This document shows positions 1,596 through 61,363 of a DNA stretch of 64,000 nucleotides, in pieces (position 1 is the stretch's first letter; each line of letters starts with the position of its first letter). Under the pieces are notes generated by a model. The model was not told the DNA's origin, did no database searches, and worked only from the letters and a program-made list of their open reading frames with translations. The position numbers and the translations under genes were made by a program. This DNA comes from Gammaproteobacteria bacterium (lineage in GTDB: Bacteria; Pseudomonadota; Gammaproteobacteria; Ga0077554; Ga007554), in NCBI GenBank assembly GCA_016191235.1, contig JACPOZ010000021.1, forward strand, positions 4,131 to 68,130, given 5' to 3'.

Positions 1596-3041
1596 TCAAC
1601 CTTGAGGGGCAACAAGATCGCCCACCCGCACAATCTTCATGGCGTTGGTTCCGCCCTGCACTCCGGTCAGATCGCCCTTGGTGATAATCACCAGATCGCC
1701 ATCGCGCACCGCGCCGCGCCGCACCAGCTCATCAATGGCTTCTTTGTTCACCAAGGCATGATCGGTGGAGTTGACATCAAAGCTGACGGGGTACACACCA
1801 CGGTACAGCGTCACTTTTCTGCGCGTCGCCACGTGCGGCGTCAGGGCATAGATCGGGATGCCGGAGCTAATGCGTGACATCCACAAGGGCGTGGAGCCGG
1901 ATTCGGTCAACGCCGCGATAGCCTTCACACCAAGGTGATTCGCGGTATACATGCACGCCATCGCGATGGCCTCGTCAATACGCCCGAAGTGTGTGTTGAG
2001 GCGGTGATCGGAGGTCATTGCCAACGGCTGCTTTTCCGCCTCGAAACAGATGCGGTGCATCGAGGCCACTGCCTTGGCGGGGTATTTTCCACTCGCTGTC
2101 TCCGCCGACAACATCACCGCATCCGTGCCATCCAGCACCGCATTCGCCACGTCAAAGACTTCGGCGCGGGTCGGGATCGGGTTTTCGATCATCGACTCCA
2201 TCATCTGGGTAGCGGTGATCACCACCCGATTCATGGAGCGGGCCAGTTTGATGATGCGCTTTTGCACGGCAGGTAGCTCGGCATCGCCAATCTCGACACC
2301 CAAATCGCCACGCGCAACCATCACCGCATCTGTGGCGGCAATGATTTCTTCCAGGTCTTCAATGGCCTCGGCGCGCTCAATTTTCGCCACAATGCTGCCA
2401 TGGCCACCAGCGGCACGCAGCAGGCTGCGGGCGTAGTTGACATCAGCCGCACTGCGCGGAAAAGACACCGCCACATAATCCGCCTGGATTTCCGCCGCAG
2501 TTATGATGTCGGCGCGGTCCTTGTCGGTGATGGCCGCCGCGGACAACCCGCCGCCCTGGCGGTTGATTCCCTTATTATTGGAGAGCGCACCACCCACCAC
2601 CACCTGGCAGATAATCTGCTTACCTGTGACCTGCTCCACCCAAAGCACGATACGACCGTCGTCAAGCAACAGGGTATCGCCGCGATTCACGTCATTGGGC
2701 AAATCCTTGTAGGTAAGCCCGACCCGTTCCTGGTCGCCGTCGTTGACACCGCAGCTTGCGTCCAGGACAAACCGTGCGCCCTCGACGAGGATAATCTTGC
2801 CATCGCGGAAACGGTCAATCCTGATCTTGGGACCCTGCAAGTCCACCAACACGCCCACCTGACGGCCATAAGCAACCGCCCGGTTGCGCACTGCCTCGGC
2901 GCGCCGTTTATGGTCCTCGGAGGAGCCGTGAGAAAAATTAAGGCGGACCACATCGACACCCGCCTCGATAACGCCATCCAGCACTTTTGGATCATCGGTG
3001 GCGGGGCCGAGTGTTGCAACAATCTTGGTTCGTCTTAGCAA
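1596..3041 (-). CDS. pyk: pyruvate kinase
   Basis: 481 aa with MLRRTKIVATLGPA start and NFSHG and MVARGDLGVEIG motifs. Confidence 0.93.
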   Translation of the reverse strand: MLRRTKIVATLGPATDDPKVLDGVIEAGVDVVRLNFSHGSSEDHKRRAEAVRNRAVAYGRQVGVLVDLQGPKIRIDRFRDGKIILVEGARFVLDASCGVNDGDQERVGLTYKDLPNDVNRGDTLLLDDGRIVLWVEQVTGKQIICQVVVGGALSNNKGINRQGGGLSAAAITDKDRADIITAAEIQADYVAVSFPRSAADVNYARSLLRAAGGHGSIVAKIERAEAIEDLEEIIAATDAVMVARGDLGVEIGDAELPAVQKRIIKLARSMNRVVITATQMMESMIENPIPTRAEVFDVANAVLDGTDAVMLSAETASGKYPAKAVASMHRICFEAEKQPLAMTSDHRLNTHFGRIDEAIAMACMYTANHLGVKAIAALTESGSTPLWMSRISSGIPIYALTPHVATRRKVTLYRGVYPVSFDVNSTDHALVNKEAIDELVRRGAVRDGDLVIITKGDLTGVQGGTNAMKIVRVGDLVAPQG

Positions 3042-3177
3042 ATCAATAACTCCGTAGCGTAATCCAGGTCATTCACGCAAAACCGCGCCGTTGAATGCAC
3101 TATCTTTGCTATATGTTCCACATGCCTGTCACAGTGGTTTTTTGTGCATCAACTCTTTGCGGCTCTGCGTGACATTT

Positions 3178-4359
3178 TTACTTCTTCGCAGCACGTTCTT
3201 CCAAAATCGCCACGGCAGGCAGCTTCTTTCCTTCCAAAAACTCAAGGAAGGCGCCACCACCGGTGGAGATATAGGAAATCTTATCAGCGATATTATACTT
3301 GGCCACCGCCGCCAGCGTGTCCCCGCCGCCCGCGATGGAGAAGGCCTTGGAGTTGGCGATAGCCAGCGACAACGCCTTGGTGCCATTGCCGAACTGATCA
3401 AACTCAAACACGCCAACCGGGCCATTCCAGACAATAGTGCCGGCATTGGCAATGATTTCTTCCAATTGTTTGCTGGACTTGGGGCCGAAGTCGAAAATCA
3501 TGTCATCATCGGCCACGTCTTTAACATCCTTCAATGTGGCAACGGCGGATTCGGAGAACTCCTTGCCGCACACCACATCCACCGGAACAGGCACATCACC
3601 GCCTTTGGCGCGGGCCTCGGCAATAATGTCCTTGGCTTCTTGCACCAAATCGGCTTCCGCCAGCGATTTACCCACTTTGTGGCCTTCCGCCAGGATAAAG
3701 GTATTGGCGATACCGCCGCCAACAATCAGCTGATCCACGATTTTCGACAATGATTTAAGTACAGTGAGCTTGGTCGACACTTTCGAGCCGCCAACAATGG
3801 CAACCATGGGGCGCGCGGGCTTGTCCAACGCCTTGCCCAATGCTTCCAGCTCGGCGGCCAGCAGCGGACCGGCGCAGGCTATGGGGGCGAATTTGGCAAC
3901 GCCGTGGGTGGATGCCTCGGCGCGGTGCGCGGTACCGAAGGCATCCATCACATAGATGTCACACAGCGCGGCATACTGCCTGGAAAGATCATCCGCGTTC
4001 TTTTTCTCGCCCTTATTAAAGCGCACATTTTCGAAGACCACCACCTCACCGGGGGCGACATCAACGCCGCCCAGATAGTCCTTGATGACCCGCACCGGCT
4101 TGCCGAGCAGGCCGGACAGATGTTCCGCGACGGGTTTCATGGAGTTGTCTTCGCTGTAGACGCCTTCTTCAGGGCGGCCCAGATGCGACATCACCATCAC
4201 CTTGGCACCCGCCTTCACCGCCAACTGGATGGTAGGCAGGGAAGCACGAATGCGGGTGTCGTCAGCCACCTTGCCATTTTTGAGCGGCACATTGAGATCT
4301 TCACGGATCAACACCCGCTTTCCAGCAAGGTCGAGATCAGTCATTTTGATTACAGACAT
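3178..4359 (-). CDS. pgk: phosphoglycerate kinase
   Basis: 393 aa with [22 protein letters not shown] and [12 protein letters not shown] motifs. AGGAG Shine-Dalgarno (SD) sequence upstream of the ATG at 4359. Confidence 0.95.
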
Positions 4360-29076: not shown

Positions 29077-29201
29077 GTGCCGAGGCGTCCATTTGAACCT
29101 CCACTGTTTATTATCCATGCGCAAGATAATAATGCAAAATAAACAAAAATGTTATTAATAAACAATATGATATGTTTCGCGTTATTATCTTGGCGAAAAA
29201 A

Positions 29202-29326
29202 ACCCGCCCTCAAACCTCATAATCAACCAGACGCCGCTCCGAGCGCACCGCCATCACAAATTCCTTGACCTCTTCATGCAATGGATGGCTCTGATATACA
29301 TCCAGTGCCGCCCTGCTCTCGAACTC
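29202..29326. repeat. 125-bp direct repeat, left copy
   Basis: Identical to 31178-31302 except 29276 A versus 31252 G. Confidence 0.95.
29210..29326 (-). pseudogene. orphan 3' fragment of the Dabb-domain gene (last 38 codons plus stop)
   Basis: Lies within the left repeat copy and encodes ...EFESRAALDVYQSHPLHEEVKEFVMAVRSERRLVDYEV*. No upstream coding continuation. Confidence 0.75.
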
Positions 29327-29341
29327 AGGATTCAGCAATGA

Positions 29342-31003
29342 CTATTCGGGAAGCGGGAACAACTGCTTTGACCTGCGCCACCACAACCCCATCAATGCGA
29401 GCAATGCCAGCGGCTCAAACGCACCGCCGCCTCCAGAAGAGGGGGGTGAAGATGACGGCGTAGATGGCGCGGCCTCGGCAACAGACCTGATGCCTTGCCC
29501 ACTCAGCGCTAAAGGTTGATAACCGGCAGCGGAGTCACTGAACACCATCACTTCTCCGGTATAAGAATATTCGCCAGCGGATGAATACGTTACCGCAAAC
29601 TGGCACTGGCCGCCCGCCTCGATGGTATTACCGGAACAGGTATCATTTTTGATACCAAAATCACCCGTGGTGCCACTCTCCCCGGCAACCAAAAGGACCG
29701 CATCGATCTTCAGGGGCAACGCACCAGCATTTGATAACGTAACCACATGCTCCTTACTTTGTCCAACAGGGACACTGAAAGTGAGTGGCCCGGTGTCCAA
29801 CTTGATCGCCGATGTCAGCGTGGGACCAGTGATTTTTTTAAGTTCCTCGGAGTCTGAGCTAAATTTTCGCGCGAGCTGAAGCGTTGCGGTATCTATGACG
29901 TAAACATTGCTGTAGCTCGCACATCCCGGTTGAACTGTAGCACTGGAGGTTACGCGGAGTCTGGGCTGGTAGAATTGTATTTCCAGGCCCTGCGGCAGGC
30001 CAGACATTGGAATGCTGATATACGAAACTGCCGTGGACGATAAATCCACGGAAGCCAACAGAGTAGCGTTGCTACTGGTGTCGCCGATCGTCGCATAGAG
30101 ATTCTTGCCTTCCGCATCAATAACCATGTCACCGGCAACACGATTCTCCCCCACAAAACTTGTTACCAGTGTAACCACTTTTGTTGCCACATTCATCGCC
30201 ACAAGCTTTCCTGAAGTCTGGCTTAGAATATAAAGACGGGAGCCATCGGGATGAGCAACAAGACGGTTCGGGATATCGCTGAGAATTATGGTATCAACTA
30301 CCGTGCGGGTAACCGTATCTATCACATAAACCGCGTTCTCGCCCTCGCTGGCCACAAACAATTTTCTGCCATCAGGGCTTAAAGCCATCGAGGAAGGCTT
30401 GCTGCCCACAACAATGGTCACAACAACCACATGCTCTGGCGCCTTGATGATGGAAACAGTCCCATCGTCGTAATTTGACACGTAAACGTACCGTCCGTTG
30501 GGACTGATGGCCATAGCGCGCGGCGCGGCACCGACATTCACGATGGTGCTGGCTGTGCTCGCGGAGGCAACAGAAGTACTTGCAAGGTCAACAACCGATA
30601 CTGTTTTATCTGTGGGATTAAGCGCGTAAGAAAACGGCCCTCGCTTAATTTCCTGGACTCCGCCAGAGGAAAAAGAAACGGTTTGAAATACATAATCTGA
30701 GGGGGGTGTACATACGATGCTGGAAAAAGTATCTGGGAGTGGCACCGTTATCTGTCTTTGGGTAAACCCTACATCTACCGCTGCAATAGGGTTCGATATT
30801 GTGAACGGATCAGATGCTGCCCCACTTGCAATATGCCAGGAATCAAACACAGAAGTTGGACGCCCGGAAACCGGAACGACCTGCTGCCCAACCTCTATGA
30901 CTTTTATGTCTTCCGGCGGCGACGCCACGCCTGCAGAAATCAAACCAACCACTGATGAAAGTCCCAAACAAAACCCTGCAAGGCGGGCATACCTGGATCG
31001 CAT
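29342..31003 (-). CDS. secreted YVTN-type beta-propeller protein with a choice-of-anchor-D-like domain and GlyGly-CTERM-like tail (paralog 1)
   Basis: ORF 29342..31069 trimmed to the signal peptide MRSRYARLAGFCLGLSSVVGLISAGVA. Repeated blades (YVYVSNYDDGTVSIIK, LFVASEGENAVYVIDT, LYILSQTSGKLVAMNV). Cys-pair Ig-like domain (DTCSGNTIEAGGQCQFAVTY). C-terminus SSGGGGAFEPLALLALMGLWWRRSKQ. Confidence 0.8.
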   Translation of the reverse strand: MRSRYARLAGFCLGLSSVVGLISAGVASPPEDIKVIEVGQQVVPVSGRPTSVFDSWHIASGAASDPFTISNPIAAVDVGFTQRQITVPLPDTFSSIVCTPPSDYVFQTVSFSSGGVQEIKRGPFSYALNPTDKTVSVVDLASTSVASASTASTIVNVGAAPRAMAISPNGRYVYVSNYDDGTVSIIKAPEHVVVVTIVVGSKPSSMALSPDGRKLFVASEGENAVYVIDTVTRTVVDTIILSDIPNRLVAHPDGSRLYILSQTSGKLVAMNVATKVVTLVTSFVGENRVAGDMVIDAEGKNLYATIGDTSSNATLLASVDLSSTAVSYISIPMSGLPQGLEIQFYQPRLRVTSSATVQPGCASYSNVYVIDTATLQLARKFSSDSEELKKITGPTLTSAIKLDTGPLTFSVPVGQSKEHVVTLSNAGALPLKIDAVLLVAGESGTTGDFGIKNDTCSGNTIEAGGQCQFAVTYSSAGEYSYTGEVMVFSDSAAGYQPLALSGQGIRSVAEAAPSTPSSSPPSSGGGGAFEPLALLALMGLWWRRSKQLFPLPE

Positions 31004-31177
31004 ATCTTTTATTCTCCGCCGAAAAGGAAATTTATCGCTTCTATCTGACCATTTCTCCTTTTGAACCACGCTACTTCCCTAAGGCTTGGGTGAGCATAGC
31101 AAAGCGAAAACCAGCCGGTCAATCGAATACGCAGAGGCTAAGCTGCGCAAATCAGATACTAGAGCCTCCCATCAGAC

Positions 31178-31302
31178 ACCCGCCCTCAAACCTCATAATC
31201 AACCAGACGCCGCTCCGAGCGCACCGCCATCACAAATTCCTTGACCTCTTCGTGCAATGGATGGCTCTGATATACATCCAGTGCCGCCCTGCTCTCGAAC
31301 TC
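31178..31302. repeat. 125-bp direct repeat, right copy (inside the intact Dabb gene)
   Basis: See 29202-29326. Confidence 0.95.
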
Positions 31303-31488
31303 GGAATAGAGCGCGACATCGGATGACGCATCTTCCCTGCTGAAATCTATTCCAACCTCAAGGCGCAACATACCGGGGATCTGGCCGTTAAGCGCCTCCA
31401 AACGCCGCTTCACTTCGAGGGCATTCTCCGCCGCGCTACGACCATTGGCGGTTTCTTTCAACTTCCACAGCACGATATGTTTAATCAC
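31186..31488 (-). CDS. stress-responsive Dabb (dimeric alpha/beta barrel) domain protein
   Basis: ORF trimmed to the GTG at 31488 (IKHIVLWKLKE...). GTGA overlap with the alr stop. The longer 138-aa form would overlap alr by more than 100 nt. Confidence 0.8.
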   Translation of the reverse strand: MIKHIVLWKLKETANGRSAAENALEVKRRLEALNGQIPGMLRLEVGIDFSREDASSDVALYSEFESRAALDVYQSHPLHEEVKEFVMAVRSERRLVDYEV

Positions 31489-33967: not shown

Positions 33968-34238
33968 TTAGAGCCTGTCTGTGAATAAATCATCCCTGCG
34001 ACGGAGGCCGGTTTTGAGCAGGGCAAGGAACGCTGAGCGTAGTGTGCTTGTTGCACATAAGCGAAGCGTGACGCCGCACTGCTCAAAACCGGCCCCGTCC
34101 CTCCGGGTTGCGCCCCAAAACACGCCATGCGGCGTTGCTCGCCGCTCATTTGGTACAACCAAACTTCGCACCTCGCGTCTTGCCTGGCGTGTTTTGGGAC
34201 AGCAACGCAGGGATGATTTATTCACAGACAGGCTCTAA
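33968..34238. repeat. 271-bp nested palindromic (MITE-like) element
   Basis: Perfect 33-bp terminal inverted repeats (TIRs), ttagagcctgtctgtgaataaatcatccctgcg (33968-34000) against 34206-34238. Two internal hairpin units: ccggttttgagca...tgctcaaaaccgg and ccaaaacacgcca...tggcgtgttttgg. It generates mirror-image 85-aa ORFs on both strands. Confidence 0.7.
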
Positions 34239-34314
34239 GGAAAAAGATACCGGGAATCAGTATCAGCACGACCTCGCTTTTACTGATCCCCGTCTCCTGA
34301 TCCTTGGCCTCTGA

Positions 34315-36973: not shown

Positions 36974-37018
36974 CCCTAAATAAAAAAGCCCGGCATTGCC
37001 GGGCTTTTTTATTTAGGG
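36974..37018. terminator. bidirectional rho-independent terminator (45-bp perfect palindrome)
   Basis: ccctaaataaaaaagcccggca-t-tgccgggcttttttatttaggg. A GC stem (gcccggc/gccgggc) is flanked by A6 and T6. It lies between the convergent micro-ORF and the 910-aa gene. Confidence 0.8.
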
Positions 37019-37032
37019 TTTCTCAAAATCCG

Positions 37033-39765
37033 CTAATTTTGAACTGGCAACAAAGAGTGGGGCTTTTTTTGCGCCTGTCCCAGGCCAAGATCATAAATGT
37101 CACGATCCAGGGGGCTGAGTGCCTTGAGACGGGCGCGATAAAACGACGCCATCTTACCATCGCCGGCATCCCTCTCCATGCGCCATAAGGCCCGCAAGGC
37201 CTCGACATGGTCTGGACGCACCTGCAAAATAGCCTGCAAGGCCTGCCGTTTGTTCATGCCGCGATCCAGCGCCTGTGGCAATGTCGCCAGCATCTTGTCG
37301 GCCAGGTCAAAACCAATCCAGCGATCACGGGGATTGGCCTCAAAGGCGAGGCGCATCAGACGCTGCGCCTCGCCCGTATTATCACCACGCAGCGCAGCCA
37401 CCCAGCTTCTCGCCGCCAAAAAAGAGGCCACATAGCTGCGCTCGAATTCCTGCGCATTATTGGCCGGCACATTCATGGCGAGCGCTGCCTGCGCCAAGCC
37501 TGGCCGCTGCTCCAGCAGCTTGGACAATAATACATCGAGATTAAATGCATCGCGGTAACGTGCGCGCGGCAAACGGTATTCGATCTGCGGCGCCCATTCA
37601 TCCTGCACCGGACCCACGCCTGGCGGAATCGGTCCCCAGTAGCGGCCCAACCATGTCCATGCACCCTCCCCGCCCGTCGCGGCGGATTGCCCGGCTTGCG
37701 CAAGACGGCCCAAATTTGCCAGCAATGCGGGCGCGCCCTGCACAACGTCCTTCGGACCTACCAATGCGACGCGGAAACCATCCATAAAAATTACCGCACC
37801 GGGGAAAACCTTCCGAAAGCTGCGGAAAATTATACCCAATGATCCGGCATCGAATTGATTCAGGGCCAGCCACTGCACAAACAACCCATTTTCCGTCAAC
37901 CTGTCACGGGCGCGCTGAAATTGCTGCACTGACAACAAGGCACTATGCCCCACCAGATCGGGATGAAACAAATCGCCAATAATGACATCGTAATGCCCCG
38001 TATCCCGGCGCAAAAAGCGTCGCGCGTCATCTCGCGTCACAGCCAGCTTGCCCATCACATCCTGATTCACCGGCGCAAACCACTGCGCCGCTGCCGTAAT
38101 AGCCCCCTGCGAAAGCTCCACTGCCTTGCGCGACAATTGCGGGTACGGCAGCGATCCCGCCGCAGATATCCCCGTACCCAAGCCAAGAAACAGCACCGAG
38201 TGCGGCGCGGGGTGCAGCATCAGTGGCAAACGGGCCTGATTTTGCTGCGCCTCGACAGCAGCGGGATCGGAAGATGCGTCCATGCGCTGCAAATCGGCCA
38301 GCAACAAACGCTGACCGTCGACCCGTTCCACAACGTGGGTAATTGAGATGGCATCTTCATGCACATAAATATCCTGACTACCCGCCTGGGTCACAGGCAG
38401 CAGCACATTCACTGCGGGCAGCTCATACACCCTGCCCACCCCCGCCAGACCCATTACACCGAGCATAGTCAGCCAGGGCCAGCGGCTATCCGCCCACACC
38501 ATGCCGCACGCGAATAACAAAACTGCCGCCAGACACAAAGTACCCATGGTTCCCAGCCAGGGTATGAGCACAAATCCCGCCAGCACTGCACCCAACGCCG
38601 CACCCAACGAATTGACGCCATACAGCCACGATCCAGTGCTATGCTGATCTCCCAGTCGGCTATTGAGCAACGGCAACCACGCACCGAGCGCCAGCGTCAC
38701 CGGCAAGGTCAGCGCGGCCACAGCCAGCCCCTGCCACCACAATGCGCCCGCGAGGGATGAAAAATGCGCCTTTTCGACCCACGCCGCCAACTGCGGTACC
38801 AGCCCCAGGCCCAGCAGGCTAAAACTGCCCGCCAGCAACGGCAACACAGCAAACCAGCGCGCGCCGCGCATGTGCCGCGCCGCCAAGCTGCCCAGACCAA
38901 TACCCACCAGGAACACTGCCAGCAGCACTGCCAGCACATATTCGGTACGCAACAGGATCATGCCGAACAGGCGCGTCCAACCCACCTGCAGCATCAATGC
39001 CGCCGCACCCACGCCGGCATAGGCGGCGAGCGATACGAATGATAACCGCGCAGCGCCTTCCCTTGGGCTTTCCTTCGCAGCCGCAGCGTTCGCCAGCGGC
39101 GTAAAGGACAACAAAAACGCCGCCATGCCCACGCACAACCCAATCCCGGCAACCACCCGCACAGCGCTCGACCATCCCAGCCATGGCAACAGCAGCAAGG
39201 GCAATAACGCCCCCGCCGCGCCACCCACGGCATTGAAGCCATAGATCTTGCCTAATGAGACACTGGGTGATGCGGCTCCGCCTGCAAGCACCCTAAGCAC
39301 CAAAGGGAATCCCGCCCCCATTGCCAGCGCGGGGACAAACAACAATACCAATGCGGCCAGGGATTGCAACGCATACCATACCGTAAGCTCCGCCTGCGCG
39401 GCATACGCACCCAGCCAGCCATCCAGCACCTGCTGCATCCATGGCATACACAGGGCATAGAGAGCGACCCCAACCTCCAGCGCGGCAAAAGCCACCAGCG
39501 GCGCCCGCGCGTTGCGCGCAAACCTTACTCCCAGCAAACTGCCCAGGCCAAGGCCAGCCATGAAGGTGGCGACCGTCACCACCACACCGAAAATGCTGAC
39601 CCCGAATTGCAGGCCCAACATGCGTGCCCACAAAACCTCATAGGCGAGGCTGGTCAGGCCGGAGATAAAATACAGCAGGATCAGTACCCAGACCCAACGG
39701 TGGGGGGCATTGCCTTGCGGAGAGGAATCGCTCAAGTCAGATTTGAGCGCCTGATCAACTTGCAT
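37033..39765 (-). CDS. fused polytopic membrane (MFS-like) / spermidine-synthase-like / TPR protein
   Basis: 910 aa. About 14 N-terminal TM helices, a central SAM-fold aminopropyltransferase-like segment (VLFLGLGTGISAAGSL...YDVIIGDLFHPDL) and a C-terminal TPR-like region. Confidence 0.78.
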   Translation of the reverse strand: MQVDQALKSDLSDSSPQGNAPHRWVWVLILLYFISGLTSLAYEVLWARMLGLQFGVSIFGVVVTVATFMAGLGLGSLLGVRFARNARAPLVAFAALEVGVALYALCMPWMQQVLDGWLGAYAAQAELTVWYALQSLAALVLLFVPALAMGAGFPLVLRVLAGGAASPSVSLGKIYGFNAVGGAAGALLPLLLLPWLGWSSAVRVVAGIGLCVGMAAFLLSFTPLANAAAAKESPREGAARLSFVSLAAYAGVGAAALMLQVGWTRLFGMILLRTEYVLAVLLAVFLVGIGLGSLAARHMRGARWFAVLPLLAGSFSLLGLGLVPQLAAWVEKAHFSSLAGALWWQGLAVAALTLPVTLALGAWLPLLNSRLGDQHSTGSWLYGVNSLGAALGAVLAGFVLIPWLGTMGTLCLAAVLLFACGMVWADSRWPWLTMLGVMGLAGVGRVYELPAVNVLLPVTQAGSQDIYVHEDAISITHVVERVDGQRLLLADLQRMDASSDPAAVEAQQNQARLPLMLHPAPHSVLFLGLGTGISAAGSLPYPQLSRKAVELSQGAITAAAQWFAPVNQDVMGKLAVTRDDARRFLRRDTGHYDVIIGDLFHPDLVGHSALLSVQQFQRARDRLTENGLFVQWLALNQFDAGSLGIIFRSFRKVFPGAVIFMDGFRVALVGPKDVVQGAPALLANLGRLAQAGQSAATGGEGAWTWLGRYWGPIPPGVGPVQDEWAPQIEYRLPRARYRDAFNLDVLLSKLLEQRPGLAQAALAMNVPANNAQEFERSYVASFLAARSWVAALRGDNTGEAQRLMRLAFEANPRDRWIGFDLADKMLATLPQALDRGMNKRQALQAILQVRPDHVEALRALWRMERDAGDGKMASFYRARLKALSPLDRDIYDLGLGQAQKKPHSLLPVQN

Positions 39766-56049: not shown

Positions 56050-57453
56050 TTATCCGGCCGCCCGCAATAAGCGCTCCCTCCCCCGCTTTACCGCTGCCCG
56101 TACCTGATCCGGCGCCGTACCTCCCAGGTGGTTGCGTGACGCCACTGAACCTTCCAACGTCAGCACATCAAATACATCCTGTTCGATGGCCGTGGAAAAC
56201 TGACGCAGTTCATCGAGCGTCATTTGCGCGAGGTCCTTGCCGGTCTCGATACCGCGACGCACCGCCTTGCCGACAATCTCGTGGGCATCGCGGAACGCCA
56301 CGCCGCGCCGCACCAGATAATCCGCCAGATCGGTTGCAGTGGAAAAACCGCTCCGCGCGGCATGGGCCATGTTGTCGCGTTTGATCTGCACAGCGAGAAT
56401 CATGTCCGTATAGACCTTGAGCGAGCCGCGCACGGTGTCGATGGTATCAAACAGCGGCTCTTTGTCTTCCTGGTTGTCTTTATTGTAGGCCAGCGGCTGG
56501 CTTTTCATGAGAGTGAGCAGGGCAATCAGGTTGCCGTTGACGCGCCCGACCTTGCCGCGCACCAGCTCAGGCACATCGGGATTTTTCTTCTGCGGCATGA
56601 TGGAGGAGCCTGTGCAGAAACGATCAGGAAGATCGACGAAACCAAACTGCGTGGATGACCAGAGGATCAGCTCCTCGGAGCAGCGCGACAGATGCGTCAT
56701 TATCAGCGCGGCGGCGGCGGTGAATTCAATGGCGAAGTCGCGGTCGCTGACGGCGTCGAGGGAATTTTCCGCCGGCGCGTCGAAACCCAGCAATTGGGCG
56801 GTGTAGGCACGGTCGATGGGATAGCTGGTACCCGCCAGCGCCGCCGCTCCCAGGGGCATGATGTTGGCGCGCTTGCGGCAGTCCTGCATGCGCGCGCGGT
56901 CGCGGTTGAACATCTCGAACCACGCCATCATGTGATGGCCGAAGGTAACGGGCTGGGCCACTTGCAGATGGGTGAATCCGGGCATGATGGTGTCGGCCTC
57001 GCGCTCGGCGACGTCGAGCAGCGCGGCTTGCAGGCGCGTCAGCTCGGCCATGATGGCGTCGATCTCGTCACGCAGATAAAGGCGGATATCGGTGGCAACC
57101 TGATCATTGCGCGAGCGGCCGGTATGCAATTTTTTGCCGGCGATGCCGATGCGCTCGGTGAGGCGCGCCTCAATGTTCATGTGCACGTCTTCCAGCGCCA
57201 CCGACCACGTGAAGTCGCCGCGCTCGATGTCGCGCAAGATGTCCTGCAAGCCATCGACGATGGCCTCGCACTCTGCCGCGCTCAGCACCCCCACACGAGT
57301 CAACATGCGCGCATGGGCGATGGAGCCTGCGATGTCGTGCCTGTAGAGCCGTTTGTCGAACAACACGGAGGCGGTGAACGCCTCGACGAAGGTATCCGTC
57401 GCCTCGGTAAAACGCCCTGCCCAGGGTTTGTCGATGCTTTTGTCGCTAGCCAC
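56050..57453 (-). CDS. argH: argininosuccinate lyase
   Basis: 467 aa with the fumarate-lyase signature [12 protein letters not shown]. Confidence 0.96.
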
Positions 57454-57467
57454 GCTTTTATCCTGTT

Positions 57468-57519
57468 ACGAAAATAATGTGGTGGAAAGTATAGCAATTT
57501 TCCGGGGCAGGAATCCGCC
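57468..57519. repeat. about 52-bp direct repeat, left copy (argH-proximal)
   Basis: acgaaaataatgtggtggaaagtatagcaattttccggggcaggaatccgcc matches 59464-59515 at 44/52 positions. Perfect cores are ataatgtggtggaaag, caattttccggg and ggaatccgcc. Confidence 0.85.
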
Positions 57520-57638
57520 ACATTTTTCTCGCGCAGATTCGGCGGATCAGGAATTCACAGCAGGTTCAAAATTACCATTTTCAAAGTGGCGTGGCATCAG
57601 GAGAAGATGATATCCGCGAGGCGCACCTCGCTTTTTGT

Positions 57639-59342
57639 CTATAGCCGCTGCCGCCCCCTACGCACCAAGGCCCACAACACCGCAAACATCAGGCTGATCG
57701 GCCCCCAGCTTCCTCCGCCGCCGCCACTATTGCCACTAGCGCTTGATGGCAACGCCTCCTCTGCTCCTGATACACCCCGCGCTGTCACAGCGACCGGCGC
57801 AGAAAGCAGGGTGGAATCACTGTCGATATGCACCAGGGCGCCAGACTGGCCCGTGCTGACCGGGGCATAGCTCAAGGTAATCGCGCATTGACCATCAGGC
57901 TGCAGGGTCTTATTCGTGCAGGTGTCCTCGGCGACTGCAAAGCCGGAGGAATTGGTGGCAGTGGCCACAGGGATATTCGCTGGCGTACTGGAAACCTCGA
58001 TCCGCACGCCGCTCACTGTGAGTGGCAAACTTCCCGTATTGGTGATGGTGAGGGTGCGTGCAGCAGGCTGGCCGCTGGGAACCTCGCCAAAATCCAGTTG
58101 TTTTGCGCTGGGAGTGATGATCGACGCCAGCTCAGGGCTACTGACCAAGGGGCCAAGTCCCATCACCGCGAGCCGGTTCAGTAATTGACCGTTTTTATCC
58201 AGCACTTCGAGATGGTTCGTCTGCTTGTTCATGCCGAACAACCAGCCTGCTTTAGTCACAACAATATCCGCTGCAACGCCTTTGACGTCCAGGGTACTAG
58301 TCAGCTTCAAGTCAGTGGTATCGACGATATAAACCTTGCCAAATATTTCCGCGCAACTCGGTGCTTGCGGCAGCTCGGTGGTGACGAACAATTGCTGTGC
58401 CGCAGGGTTTACAGCCAACGCTTGGGGCAGGCCCTCAAAACTGATCTCAGGAAACGAAATCTCATTTGTTGCGGTATCCAATACCGCCAATGATGTCGTG
58501 GTGAGATGGCCGAGGGTGATGTACAGCCGCTCGCCGGATGCGTCCAACGCGATATCCTCAGGCGCGCCTTGCTCGATCAATGCGTGGCTTTTCACGACAT
58601 CGCCCGAGGCAACATCAATGACATATACTTTGCCACTGACATGACTCAGGCTATACAGCCGCGTGCCGTCCAGGTGGATAGCGAGACGGTCGGAAACATC
58701 GGCGAGAGCAATCGTCTTGATTGCGCTCCGCGCGGCGGTATCAATCACGATGATGGATTTGCCACCCTCAACCACTGCATAGAGCCGGGTTCCATCGCGG
58801 CTCACAAGCAAACTGGCAGGCTTAGCCTCCAAAGTGACCTCGCCGATCCTGTGACGATCATGGGCACGGATGATGACGATCTTTCCGTCGCCCGTGCCGA
58901 CATAGATATAGCCGCCGCTCGGACTGATGGCTATGCCTTGAGGAATCTGACCAGCATCGAGTGAAAGGGGTTCGGCCTTGACCGCACCCAGATCGGAATA
59001 ATCCACCACAGAGACGGTGTTGTTATCGCGGTTGGTGAAGTAGGCATATGGCCCGCGTTTGGTCGTGCTCGAAGTAACAACTGCGGCGGACATACGAACA
59101 GCGTTCACTGAGCTATCGGCCATCATGGTTTGAATAAGGGGCGTACCATCGGCGCGGGGGGGCCGCGGAAGGAAGTAATCTCCTGTTATAGTCGTTTCAC
59201 ACGCCCCTCCTCCCGGGCAGGGAGCCACAGGAGTTACGGAGCAAGAATCGCCAAATTTCCAGCCATCGAAATCGATTGGCGATGCGGCAAAGACGTTTGA
59301 AGCAACGGCAAGCAGCAACCCTGCAAATAATGCGCGTGACAT
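57639..59342 (-). CDS. secreted YVTN-type beta-propeller protein with a choice-of-anchor-D-like domain and GlyGly-CTERM-like tail (paralog 2)
   Basis: 567 aa with signal peptide MSRALFAGLLLAVASNVFA. Blades collinear with paralog 1 (YIYVGTGDGKIVIIRA, LYAVVEGGKSIIVIDT, LYSLSHVSGKVYVIDV). Cys-pair domain DTCTNKTLQPDGQCAITLSY. C-terminus SGNSGGGGGSWGPISLMFAVLWALVRRGRQRL. Confidence 0.8.
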   Translation of the reverse strand: MSRALFAGLLLAVASNVFAASPIDFDGWKFGDSCSVTPVAPCPGGGACETTITGDYFLPRPPRADGTPLIQTMMADSSVNAVRMSAAVVTSSTTKRGPYAYFTNRDNNTVSVVDYSDLGAVKAEPLSLDAGQIPQGIAISPSGGYIYVGTGDGKIVIIRAHDRHRIGEVTLEAKPASLLVSRDGTRLYAVVEGGKSIIVIDTAARSAIKTIALADVSDRLAIHLDGTRLYSLSHVSGKVYVIDVASGDVVKSHALIEQGAPEDIALDASGERLYITLGHLTTTSLAVLDTATNEISFPEISFEGLPQALAVNPAAQQLFVTTELPQAPSCAEIFGKVYIVDTTDLKLTSTLDVKGVAADIVVTKAGWLFGMNKQTNHLEVLDKNGQLLNRLAVMGLGPLVSSPELASIITPSAKQLDFGEVPSGQPAARTLTITNTGSLPLTVSGVRIEVSSTPANIPVATATNSSGFAVAEDTCTNKTLQPDGQCAITLSYAPVSTGQSGALVHIDSDSTLLSAPVAVTARGVSGAEEALPSSASGNSGGGGGSWGPISLMFAVLWALVRRGRQRL

Positions 59343-59463
59343 TATCCATCTCCAGGAATTTTTTTGTTATGCCCCAGCTCGAGTTAAAACGACCACCAAG
59401 GCTCAAACCTTAATGTAGCGCGGCAAAGTAGCGACTGTCTATCGCGAGATTTTGCTGCGCCTT

Positions 59464-59515
59464 ATGAAGATAATGTGGTGGAAAGCAGAACAATTTTCCG
59501 GGTATGGAATCCGCC
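59464..59515. repeat. about 52-bp direct repeat, right copy (algZ-proximal)
   Basis: See 57468-57519. Confidence 0.85.
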
Positions 59516-59570
59516 GGAAATAGCCGATATAGACAAGACTACCTCCATTTAATGACACCTTAATGACGCC

Positions 59571-60632
59571 ATGGCAAAATCCCCCACATTCACCGCGAAT
59601 GACACCACCAGCGGCACCCTGTTTCTGCCGGATTTTTGCAATATCCGCATGGTGTTTGCGATTGTGATTATCGCGGAGCTGCTGGCTTTTCTGATTGTGC
59701 TGGCGAGTTCATCCGGTCATCAGGTATGGGACAATCTGAGCCTGACTTCGCTGTTTATCCAGTGGGTAGCGCTGGCCAGCACTGCGGTGCTGTGCCTAAG
59801 TCGTCCCTGGCTGGCCACTTTGGACAACCGGGCCGCTGCAATTTTCAGTTACCTGTTGCCGGTGATTGTTACCGCACTGCTCAGTGGCGCCACTGACTGG
59901 ATAGCCTATGCCCAAATGGGCGCGGGCGCCGAGCAACACGCGGCCTTTGCAATCCGCAACGTCACCATCAGTGCCATCATCAGCGCCGTGGTGATGCGCT
60001 ATTTCTATGTGCAGCATCAGTTGAAACAAAACATTCAGGCCGAATCGAGGGCGCGCATCCAGGCACTGCAGGCGCGCATCCGTCCGCATTTTCTGTTCAA
60101 CAGCATGAACACCATTGCCAGCCTGACGCGCAGTCAGCCGGCGCTGGCAGAGGAAGCCGTGATGGATCTGGCCGATCTGTTCCGCGTCAGCCTGTCCGAC
60201 GCCCATGAGCTCATCACGTTTCAGGCGGAACTGGAGCTGTCGCAGCGCTATCTGCACATCGAAAAGCTGCGCTTGGGCGAGCGGTTGATCGTTGCGTGGG
60301 ATTTACACGGGATCTTTGACGGTGCGCTGATCCCGGCGCTCACTCTCCAGCCGTTACTGGAGAACGCGATCTACCATGGCATAGAACCGCTGCCGGAAGG
60401 CGGGGTGATTCACATCAACGGGCAGCAAACGTTGGGGCTGATTCACATCAATATCAGCAACCCCGTGTCAACGCAGAGCATCACCGCGCGGCGCGGCGGC
60501 CACCACATGGCGCTGGACAATATCCGCCAGCGGCTGGCGGCTCATTATGGAACACAGGGCGAACTCACCACGGAACGCACCGGGGACTATTACCGTGTCC
60601 GGCTCACTTTTCCGGTGGAGCACACTTCATGA
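59571..60632 (+). CDS. algZ: LytS/AlgZ(FimS)-family sensor histidine kinase
   Basis: 353 aa. N-terminal multi-TM region beginning ...LFLPDFCNIRMVF, the His_kinase motif IRPHFLFNSMNTIASL, and the N-box LLENAIYHGIEP. ATGA overlap with the response regulator. Confidence 0.82.
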   Translation: MAKSPTFTANDTTSGTLFLPDFCNIRMVFAIVIIAELLAFLIVLASSSGHQVWDNLSLTSLFIQWVALASTAVLCLSRPWLATLDNRAAAIFSYLLPVIVTALLSGATDWIAYAQMGAGAEQHAAFAIRNVTISAIISAVVMRYFYVQHQLKQNIQAESRARIQALQARIRPHFLFNSMNTIASLTRSQPALAEEAVMDLADLFRVSLSDAHELITFQAELELSQRYLHIEKLRLGERLIVAWDLHGIFDGALIPALTLQPLLENAIYHGIEPLPEGGVIHINGQQTLGLIHINISNPVSTQSITARRGGHHMALDNIRQRLAAHYGTQGELTTERTGDYYRVRLTFPVEHTS

Positions 60633-61363
60633 GAATACTGATTGTGGACGACGAGGCGCTGGCGCGGGCGCGCCTGCGTTCCCTGACGGAGGAAATGGCT
60701 GGTATTGATGTGGCCGGCGAGGCAGCAAATGGCAAACAAGCGCTGTTTGCGGCCAGTGAACTGGCGCCGGATGTTATCCTGCTCGACATCCGCATGCCGG
60801 TCATGGACGGCCTGGAAGCCGCACAGCACCTTGCCACGCTGAAAAACCCGCCCGCAGTGATCTTCACCACCGCCTACGGCGACCACGCCCTGGCCGCCTT
60901 CGAGGCGCACGCCATGGACTACCTGCTCAAACCCATCCGCAAGGAGCGCTTGCGGCAGGCCCTGGACAAGGCAGGCAAACTCAACCGCGCCCAGCTCCAT
61001 GCCGTAACGCGCAATGAAAACGGCAATACACACGCCCGCACCCACATCAGTTCACATTCGGCGGGTAAGATTCAACTGGTGGCGGTGGCGGATATCCTCT
61101 ACTTCCAGGCCGATAATAAATATGTCACGGTGCGTCATACTGGCGGCGAGGTACTGATCGAGGCATCCCTCAAATCCCTGGAAGAGGAGTTCGCCAGGCA
61201 CTTCACGCGTATCCACCGCAATGCGCTGGTGGCGAATGCTCACCTCATCGGTATGACAAAAAATAAGGACGGGCATTATGAGGTTATGTTGCGCGGCAGC
61301 GACGACCGGCTGGAGGTCAGCCGCAGCCATCTGCCGCTTGTAAAAAAAAGACTGAAGGTGTGA
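60629..61363 (+). CDS. algR: LytTR-family response regulator
   Basis: 244 aa with receiver domain (MRILIVDDE...DIRMP) and a C-terminal LytTR DNA-binding domain. Confidence 0.9.
   Translation: MRILIVDDEALARARLRSLTEEMAGIDVAGEAANGKQALFAASELAPDVILLDIRMPVMDGLEAAQHLATLKNPPAVIFTTAYGDHALAAFEAHAMDYLLKPIRKERLRQALDKAGKLNRAQLHAVTRNENGNTHARTHISSHSAGKIQLVAVADILYFQADNKYVTVRHTGGEVLIEASLKSLEEEFARHFTRIHRNALVANAHLIGMTKNKDGHYEVMLRGSDDRLEVSRSHLPLVKKRLKV

Follow-up and report, generated by a model that had tools for sequence, protein, structure and literature searches.

How does a single gene come to lie in the short spacer between two divergent, conserved genes? Bacterial gene gain is usually explained by mobile elements or by homologous replacement between conserved flanks. 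The question is raised by a 64-kb stretch of DNA from a gammaproteobacterial metagenome-assembled genome (MAG; GCA_016191235.1, contig JACPOZ010000021.1), which is called the window throughout. In the window argH and algZ are separated by a gene for a β-propeller protein, prop2 (locus 2), and a second propeller gene, prop1 (locus 1), lies at 29-31 kb. prop2 stands between two copies of a direct repeat, the left, argH-side copy S and the right, algZ-side copy S'. Comparison with related genomes makes it highly probable that foreign DNA with the propeller gene entered a 110-nucleotide (nt) argH-algZ spacer and that the target was duplicated on both sides. The locus is a real insertion scar, doubly documented, with an unusually long target duplication, and a variant of a known architecture.

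A direct repeat on both sides of the gene

A repeat search and a blastn comparison of the window with itself identify 57466-57519 and 59462-59515 as an ungapped direct repeat of 54 nt with 46/54 identical positions (E=6e-10). A preliminary description of this DNA had placed the copies at 57468-57519 and 59464-59515 with 44 matches in 52, which is correct within the larger extent, and its three perfect cores are present as claimed with 16, 12 and 10 nt. It had also put the repeat 15 nt from an ATG start of argH; the actual start is a GTG at 57453, 12 nt away. Every core pattern of the pair occurs twice in the window, both times in the pair, and for the 25-nt pattern CAATTTTCCGGGNNNGGAATCCGCC the expectation from 100 shuffles is 0.00 occurrences. 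Together with the E value of the self-comparison, this excludes a chance match. The self-comparison finds two pairs of direct repeats only, each of which encloses one of the only two propeller genes of the window; the second pair is 29202-29326 and 31178-31302 (125 nt, 124/125 identical). The region of the argH-algZ repeat has no Rfam match at E<=1.

The two copies at locus 2 differ in how far they have departed from the single copy found in genomes without the gene. S differs from that copy at 1-2 of 54 positions and S' at 6-7. The S' copies of two relatives with the insert, L168 and L166, are identical, and that of the window differs from both at one of 54 positions. At the right end of the repeats S and S' share a 20-nt block without a mismatch (GGAATCCGCCGGAAATAGCC), and the changes in S' are found to the left of this block.

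Empty and filled alleles

Close relatives were taken from the 90% protein cluster of AlgZ. More distant relatives came from AlgZ scans of species-representative genomes and JGI metagenomes; these are at most 59% identical and were used for gene order, not for spacer alignment. Three MAG lineages lack the propeller gene: L163/L164 (GCA_040183005.1), L165 (GCA_947085925.1) and L169 (GCA_964469705.1). Their argH-algZ spacer measures 110 nt and holds the motif once, contiguous with both flanks. Aligned with these empty sites, the window shows 92-93% identity that ends exactly at 57519 and 89-91% identity that restarts exactly at 59462, and both aligned stretches cover the same 54 nt of the empty site (L163 5903-5956). 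This supports the earlier proposal that the argH-algZ region was split by an insert and duplicated on both sides. The preliminary description had named two motif copies in genomes lacking the propeller gene as the observation that would speak against an insertion; all three lineages carry one. Its statement that argH and algZ are usual divergent neighbours also holds, as argH lies next to algZ, in divergent orientation and with no gene between them, in 93 of the 160 loci from more distant relatives (48/80 genome and 45/80 metagenome loci), with a median gap of about 140 nt. A propeller homologue is present at argH-algZ in none of the 160.

The filled state is found in L166/L167 (GCA_021731145.1) and in L168, a Logan contig that is structured as the window and 95.7% identical to it over 7.6 kb. 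In identity matrices the window, L168/L170 and L166/L167 group at 94-97%, with the empty genomes outside at 91-93%. The empty state is considered ancestral because the filled genomes form one clade and because the 93 distant adjacencies are free of the propeller gene. On these sequence relationships, one gain of prop2 on the stem of the window/L168/L166 clade would be the parsimonious account. At least four data sets yielded the filled prop2 locus in independent assemblies, and in four metagenomes with the same population it is contiguous and its depth stays even over the insert; it is therefore not an assembly artefact. No joint that skips the insert, as expected of an empty or excised allele in the same populations, occurs in the contigs of runs X1-X4, although contigs drop rare variants.

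The divergence between the window and L166 is a mosaic, with 1% in the 5' part of algZ and 8-12% further on. Freshwater populations (runs X2-X5) are 99.9% identical to the window at 57.3-64 kb and only about 96% identical at 22-26 and 33-38 kb. The same populations have nothing at least 90% identical to 26.8-32.6 kb, the part with a 190-amino acid (aa) open reading frame (ORF), a SWIM gene, prop1, Dabb and part of alr. The pattern points to a mosaic genome in which recent homologous exchange may have carried the prop2 locus. All three filled lineages share six changes in S', but a reading of these as a burst of change or as the mark of a donor was dropped as evidence, because the mosaic divergence of the region confounds it. 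In a supposed donor-derived tract from S' into algZ the divergence is no higher than background.

The same architecture at 29-31 kb

The claim that locus 1 has the same architecture is borne out by empty sites of its own, L171/L172 (from the same MAG as L163) and L173 (GCA_033717875.1). Alignment of the window with these sites breaks off at 29326 and resumes at 31178/31180, and the 125 nt are single in each. Both copies in the window share four substitutions that are specific to its lineage relative to both empty sites; one further change is private to the left copy. The duplicated 125 nt are therefore the recipient's own, unless gene conversion homogenised the pair. Elsewhere the locus varies, as one related population shows an empty junction and another a different neighbour. 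The assembly graph of the source run has the repeat as a unitig of its own, with a depth of 17.4 against 7.7-11.1 for its neighbours. This depth, about twice theirs, fits two integrated copies or an empty site plus a 1976-bp circle equally.

Evidence of three kinds supports the argH-algZ insertion as the older of the two, as the preliminary description suggested. Its repeats are 85% identical against 99.2% at locus 1, and prop2 is common to the clade of the window, L168 and L166, while prop1 is seen in the source metagenome only, which comes from groundwater (run X1). The G+C content of third codon positions (GC3) agrees with this order, with 0.62 for prop2 and 0.52 for prop1 against 0.70-0.78 for the housekeeping genes and other neighbours (argH, algZ, algR, hemC, alr, dnaB and the SWIM gene). 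Because of this atypical GC3 both propeller genes look acquired, prop1 more recently. The loci show no recombination core in common, since their duplications differ in length (54/64 against 125 nt) and their repeats are unrelated in sequence.

A variable slot between S and prop2

In L166 the order is argH, S, a gene for a 579-aa lipoprotein, a terminator, a fragment called a', the propeller gene, S' and algZ. The part that sets L166 apart (2167-4047) consists of the plus-strand lipoprotein gene, which has no family match, the plus-strand terminator and a'. This fragment (3975-4024) comprises 50 nt that are 84-88% identical to the 3' end of argH, lies in the same orientation as argH and is followed in the argH frame by Leu-TAA. 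It is not present in the window or in L168. These two share a 132-nt segment (57520-57651), including a hairpin, that is unrelated to the L166 sequence there, and the last codons of the propeller gene differ between window/L168 and L166.

The left repeat copy of L166 extends 10 nt further, to ...GGAAATAGCC, and has an internal 8-nt tandem duplication. The original duplication therefore spanned 64 nt or more, and its end was later lost in the lineage of the window and L168. Sequences left of prop2 thus differ among relatives, which makes the slot between S and prop2 a site of continuing turnover. Contigs of related populations (runs X6 and X8) match the window from 57524 rightwards and have a different sequence before it (...GGTGAGGACAGATTTCGCGA).

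How the scar may have arisen

In all likelihood argH and algZ were at first divergent neighbours with a conserved 110-nt spacer, which foreign DNA invaded in the ancestor of the window, L168 and L166. The incoming DNA carried a gene for an exported YVTN-propeller/choice-of-anchor-D protein with a GlyGly-CTERM-like tail, and 54 nt or more of the spacer (64 nt or more in the relative with the fewest rearrangements) came to lie around it as direct repeats. argH thus keeps its full upstream region in S, and algZ keeps S' joined to its own proximal leader. As to the process, the two ends of the foreign DNA would have been attached to the target with a stagger of 54-125 nt. A staggered double-strand break could have been filled in, or the foreign DNA could have bridged a replication fork in an unequal sister-duplex or template-switch event. 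Either route would duplicate the recipient's own sequence. Such insertions may survive in a compact control region or at a gene's 3' end because the duplication would leave both neighbours intact, and the repeats would then let RecA remove the cassette precisely, or let it pass from one relative to another.

A single illegitimate duplicative integration of this kind is the origin towards which we lean, tentatively and with confidence somewhat short of even. It is preferred because it is the only single event that explains a foreign gene flanked by 125 nt of the recipient's own DNA at locus 1. Several points weigh against it. We know of no documented bacterial pathway that yields target duplications of 50-125 nt with a foreign insert. 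Every repeat length exceeds the RecA minimum, which a homologous single crossover would predict and a random stagger would not. With 6-7 changes in all filled genomes, S' could have arrived already diverged from a donor, a sign that mosaic recombination confounds. The 50-nt argH fragment beside the propeller gene in L166 would require extra template switches in a one-step duplication. At locus 1, the integrated state of prop1 is given by the MAG contig only, the assembly graph being compatible also with the empty site plus the 1976-bp circle, and gene conversion could have homogenised the 125-nt pair.

Two known processes come close to such an integration. Fork stalling and template switching (FoSTeS), microhomology-mediated break-induced replication (MMBIR) and tandem duplications with filler DNA are described mainly in eukaryotes. 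Like locus 2, their products are inserts flanked by local duplications of variable length, sometimes with short templated patches from nearby, and the argH fragment of L166 could by analogy be such a patch. To our knowledge they are not established for the acquisition of foreign genes in bacteria. Homology-facilitated illegitimate recombination in natural transformation resembles the present case in that foreign DNA lies between conserved genes, mobile-element genes are missing and the lineage engages in homologous exchange. Its products, in work attributed to de Vries & Wackernagel 2002 and Prudhomme et al. 2002 (both cited in PMC2884548), reportedly replace or delete recipient DNA adjacent to the anchor, unlike the duplication of recipient DNA seen here.

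It is distinctly improbable, in our estimate, that the lineage has an undescribed acquisition route that uses no recombinase or one acting in trans, puts single foreign genes into tight regulatory spacers or gene ends and duplicates 50-125 nt of the target. If it exists, this route makes its own RecA-competent repeats, so that each new gene is an excisable and transferable cassette. It would be exemplified by both propeller genes and, perhaps, by the SWIM gene and its 87-nt repeats. The two loci are clean cases, each with filled and empty alleles, of a lone foreign gene amid long target duplications and no element machinery. If a regular process lies behind them, it would explain how genes can land in a 110-nt divergent promoter region or at a gene's 3' end with the neighbours unharmed. 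Each gain would be reversible and transferable by means of the repeats, and long flanking duplications would be a searchable signature of recent acquisition in MAGs.

Other origins of the repeats

In Neisseria and streptococcal genetics, insertion-duplication duplicates a target segment around the insert (PMC11658436). Applied to the present loci, a circle with the gene and a copy of the target would have integrated by one RecA crossover in that segment, as in Campbell-type integration. The anatomy of the product is identical to the known one (PMC11658436): a contiguous target segment is repeated on each side, the empty allele is single, and the repeats suffice in length for RecA and permit a precise loss. 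With 54-64, 87 and 125 nt, every repeat lies above the RecA minimum, and homologous exchange is extensive in the lineage. The left copy is recipient-like up to the 20-nt block and S' looks donor-like, with its changes left of GGAATCCGCCGGAAATAGCC, a possible crossover site. This block, or homology of 85% identity, is a poor substrate for RecA, however, and the event needs a donor in which the gene already lies beside the same sequence; none was seen. Unlike the laboratory use of Campbell-type integration, the event here is natural and brought in one foreign chromosomal gene unaccompanied by a plasmid backbone. The duplicated DNA of locus 1 belongs to the recipient even though the gene is compositionally foreign, and no circular intermediate was observed in the contigs. 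A crossover was not the primary event there, as prop1 is foreign (GC3 0.52, nearest relative 64% identical) and both 125-nt copies carry recipient substitutions. As the source of the scars a Campbell-type crossover is rather unlikely; a role in secondary spread is more plausible for it.

The fragment a' suggests a larger event at locus 2, in which about 1.45 kb, from about 25 nt before the argH stop to the spacer, were duplicated and the second argH was replaced by the propeller gene. The duplication could have arisen in tandem or by integration of a relative's circular fragment with the lipoprotein gene, argH and the spacer, and a' and S' would be its survivors. In L166, a' is indeed colinear with S' as the 3' end of argH is with S, and in the same orientation; the Leu-TAA after it follows the terminator of the lipoprotein gene like a native convergent gene end, and the divergence of a' from its partner is about the same as that of S' from its own (12-16%). 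By chance alone, however, a stop would appear in frame within two codons in about 9% of cases, and no argH-like sequence is left between a' and S'. The fragment occurs in one lineage only, being absent from the window and L168. More steps would be needed, and the clean 125-nt case of locus 1 would be left unexplained, where the insert's right boundary would need to fall exactly at the duplication joint. We therefore consider a larger duplication unlikely, and clearly so.

Site-specific recombination would make the repeats attL and attR of a decayed or trans-mobilised element whose integrase is elsewhere or lost. Cis-mobilizable elements (CIMEs) are elements without integration genes that keep attL and attR (PMC5704250). 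As in these, direct repeats bound the acquired DNA, and the repeat at locus 1 restores the 3' end of its target gene, a choice of site made by many integrases. The left part of the locus 2 insert varies among relatives as in a decaying island, and the neighbouring insertions at one boundary, the SWIM gene with 87-nt repeats and then prop1, recall tandem accretion. Unlike such elements, the two inserts of 1.85-1.94 kb are each filled by one gene, and no tyrosine or serine recombinase domain is found in them or in their immediate neighbours. The loci have no core in common, the repeats differing in length and sequence, so that two specificities would be required. No inverted-repeat arm structure was found, and 125-nt repeats that are still 99.2% identical leave little time for the traceless loss of an integrase. 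This origin is very unlikely.

With reversed polarity, the propeller gene and both copies would be ancestral and the empty genomes would have lost the gene by recombination between the repeats. Deletions between direct repeats are frequent, and a crossover in the 20-nt identical block would regenerate a single S-like copy such as the empty sites have. At least two independent losses (L163; L165/L169) would be needed, however, the propeller-free adjacency of argH and algZ in 93 distant loci would have to be derived, and the GC3 of prop2 is atypical. Such a history is extremely unlikely.

That the pair is a repeated regulatory box (of ArgR or AlgR operators, for example) or a chance match has a negligible probability, because propeller-free genomes have one copy only, which refutes it, and the similarity is colinear and ungapped over 54-64 nt, which excludes chance; the spacer itself is strongly conserved, with 1/54 differences between L163 and L165 against 5-15% in adjacent algZ coding sequence, and therefore contains regulatory sequence.

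A transposon was rejected as well. Target duplications of transposons, insertion sequences (IS) and casposons measure 2-15 bp, with a length fixed for each element, and the element has a transposase and terminal repeats. The present loci are similar in that the target is duplicated on both sides and present once in the empty site. They differ in the variable length of 54-125 nt (54/64 and 125 nt at the two loci, not a short fixed length), in the lack of a transposase by Pfam and NCBIfam models, and in the absence of terminal inverted repeats at the ends of the inserts.

Flanking genes and control regions

The identities given earlier to argH and algZ hold by their domain matches, Lyase_1 and ASL_C2 for the former and a LytS-type His_kinase for the latter (Table 1). 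The DNA of argH is 92-96% identical to argH of related MAGs, and algZ and algR are followed downstream by hemC.

Table 1. Coordinates of the genes, repeats and signals at the two loci (window positions unless a contig is named)
Feature	Position	Strand	Basis or remarks
Left copy of 125-nt duplication	29202..29326	.	Dabb 3' fragment: 8 nt past stop and 117 nt of ORF
prop1, same architecture as prop2	29342..31069	-	Probable start 31003, 553 aa; GC3 0.52
Right copy of 125-nt duplication	31178..31302	.	Working 3' end of Dabb (31186-31488)
argH (argininosuccinate lyase)	56050..57453	-	Pfam Lyase_1 4.5e-81, ASL_C2 4.1e-29; GTG start at 57453
Left copy S	57466..57519	.	Repeat search, self-comparison, empty-site alignments
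132-nt segment between S and conserved part of prop2	57520..57651	.	Holds last 13 nt of prop2 ORF
Terminator-like hairpin, GCGAGG-CGCA-CCTCGC then TTTTTG	57616-57636	+, antisense to prop2	Sequence scan; putative function
prop2, 567 aa	57639..59342	-	ORF and domain models; GC3 0.62
prop2 5' flank, part of insert	59343..59461	-	Weak sigma-70-like matches
Right copy S'	59462..59515	.	Repeat search, comparison with relatives
algZ-proximal remainder of ancestral spacer, single copy	59516..59570	+	Contains 11-nt tandem duplication
algZ-like LytS-type histidine kinase (His_kinase)	59571-60632	+	Pfam domain
algR-like LytTR response regulator	60629-61363	+	Pfam domain
SWIM-gene repeats	L171 10796-10834/12711-12749, 9397-9460/12644-12706; L173 3360-3446/5275-5361; window 29106-29192		

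S is nearly invariant across all six genomes (1-2/54 differences) while the coding flanks differ by 7-9%, and is therefore under constraint. S' keeps the three blocks ATAATGTGGTGGAAAG, CAATTTTCCGGGT and GGAATCCGCC but no longer has the AGTATAGC box, whose plus-strand reading is TATAGC and whose minus-strand reading is TATACT, a -10-like hexamer either way. This is compatible with an argH promoter that survives in S and an S' that retains only what algZ needs. A sigma-70 consensus scan of the empty spacer gave no confident promoter match, so that promoter assignments in S remain readings by eye. With S almost unchanged and S' minus its -10-like box, the locus is a natural experiment in promoter duplication. 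Immediately 5' of the algZ start codon the leader has an 11-nt tandem duplication (59549-59559, TTAATGACACC; 59560-59570, TTAATGACGCC), which has a diverged form in L166 and is absent from L168 and all empty-site genomes.

The plus-strand hairpin with a T-run noted in the preliminary description is present, though at 57616-57636 and not at about 57612-57632. From its position it would stop rightward transcripts leaving S, which would otherwise run antisense into prop2. At the same place L166 has a plus-strand gene with its own terminator.

The propeller genes and their products

The propeller gene is the sole substantial ORF of each insert, with no room for another. From its composition and predicted product, prop2 looks like a horizontally acquired gene for a surface protein. 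The protein consists of a signal peptide, a YVTN β-propeller, a choice-of-anchor D domain (ASH/HYDIN Ig-like) and a Gly-rich/transmembrane/Arg tail. The YVTN repeat model TIGR02276 (cut-off 27.85 bits) scores 49.8 bits in prop2 and 75.0 in prop1, and the choice-of-anchor D model NF012200 (cut-off 45 bits) scores 58.1 at residues 407-511 of prop2 and 37.1, below the cut-off, in prop1. The Pfam ASH/HYDIN Ig-like matches of prop2 (27.9/27.5 bits) are barely over their cut-offs. Neither protein has a transposase or integrase domain by Pfam and NCBIfam models. The two had been described as paralogs; they do share an architecture but are only about 30% identical to each other. The nearest relative of prop1, P0002, has 64% identity. 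The 5' flank of prop2 (59359-59461) is 95% identical to L166, against 88% for its coding region.

The prop2 protein ends in GGGGG, a hydrophobic helix and RRGRQR. A passage in PMC6219818 describes GlyGly-CTERM as a C-terminal Gly/Ser-rich motif followed by a hydrophobic helix and basic residues, and the tails of the propeller proteins, SGGGGGSWGPISLMFAVLWALVRRGRQRL and SSGGGGAFEPLALLALMGLWWRRSKQ, match this pattern by eye. The sole model match for the tail is a weak one to the SVAGG GlyGly-CTERM family (E=2e-4, 20.5 bits, cut-off 150), so the prop2 tail looks like a GlyGly-CTERM sorting signal at most by resemblance. No rhombosortase gene was seen among the ORFs scanned in the 64-kb window.

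Other insertions in the lineage

A third member of the propeller family, P0121, a cluster-mate of P0005 that is 34-36% identical to both propeller proteins, has purK on one side and a YgjP-like gene on the other in a different organism. Its locus has no flanking direct repeats, which are therefore not a trait of the gene family.

In L171 and L173 the SWIM/DUF6880 gene beside prop1 stands between two direct repeats that measure about 87 nt and are 85% identical. These repeats are AT-rich and imperfectly palindromic; the window retains the downstream copy only, and in L171 an IS (DDE_Tnp_1) is inserted in the downstream copy. By its sequence context the gene is possibly a third with duplicated flanks, at the same boundary. 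In L165 (1947-4505) a LysR regulator gene, two unknown genes and a TrmO-like gene, four in all, have taken the place of 95 nt that lie between rpmG and the argH 3' end, and this insertion has no flanking direct repeat. Both kinds of gain, repeat-flanked as for the propeller genes and perhaps the SWIM gene and repeat-free as in L165, therefore occur in the lineage. Downstream of argH lies a second variable slot.

Two further repeat structures were observed in the window. A near-perfect palindrome of 45 nt (36974-37018, 97.8%) lies just downstream of a 910-aa ORF without Pfam match (37033-39765). Downstream of dnaB, a segment of about 270 nt (33968-34240) is bounded by perfect 33-nt inverted repeats (33968-34000 and 34206-34238). 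It is absent from L171 and skipped in contigs of three related metagenomes (joint 33969->34251), and it looks like an insertion of the miniature inverted-repeat transposable element type that is specific to the lineage of the window.

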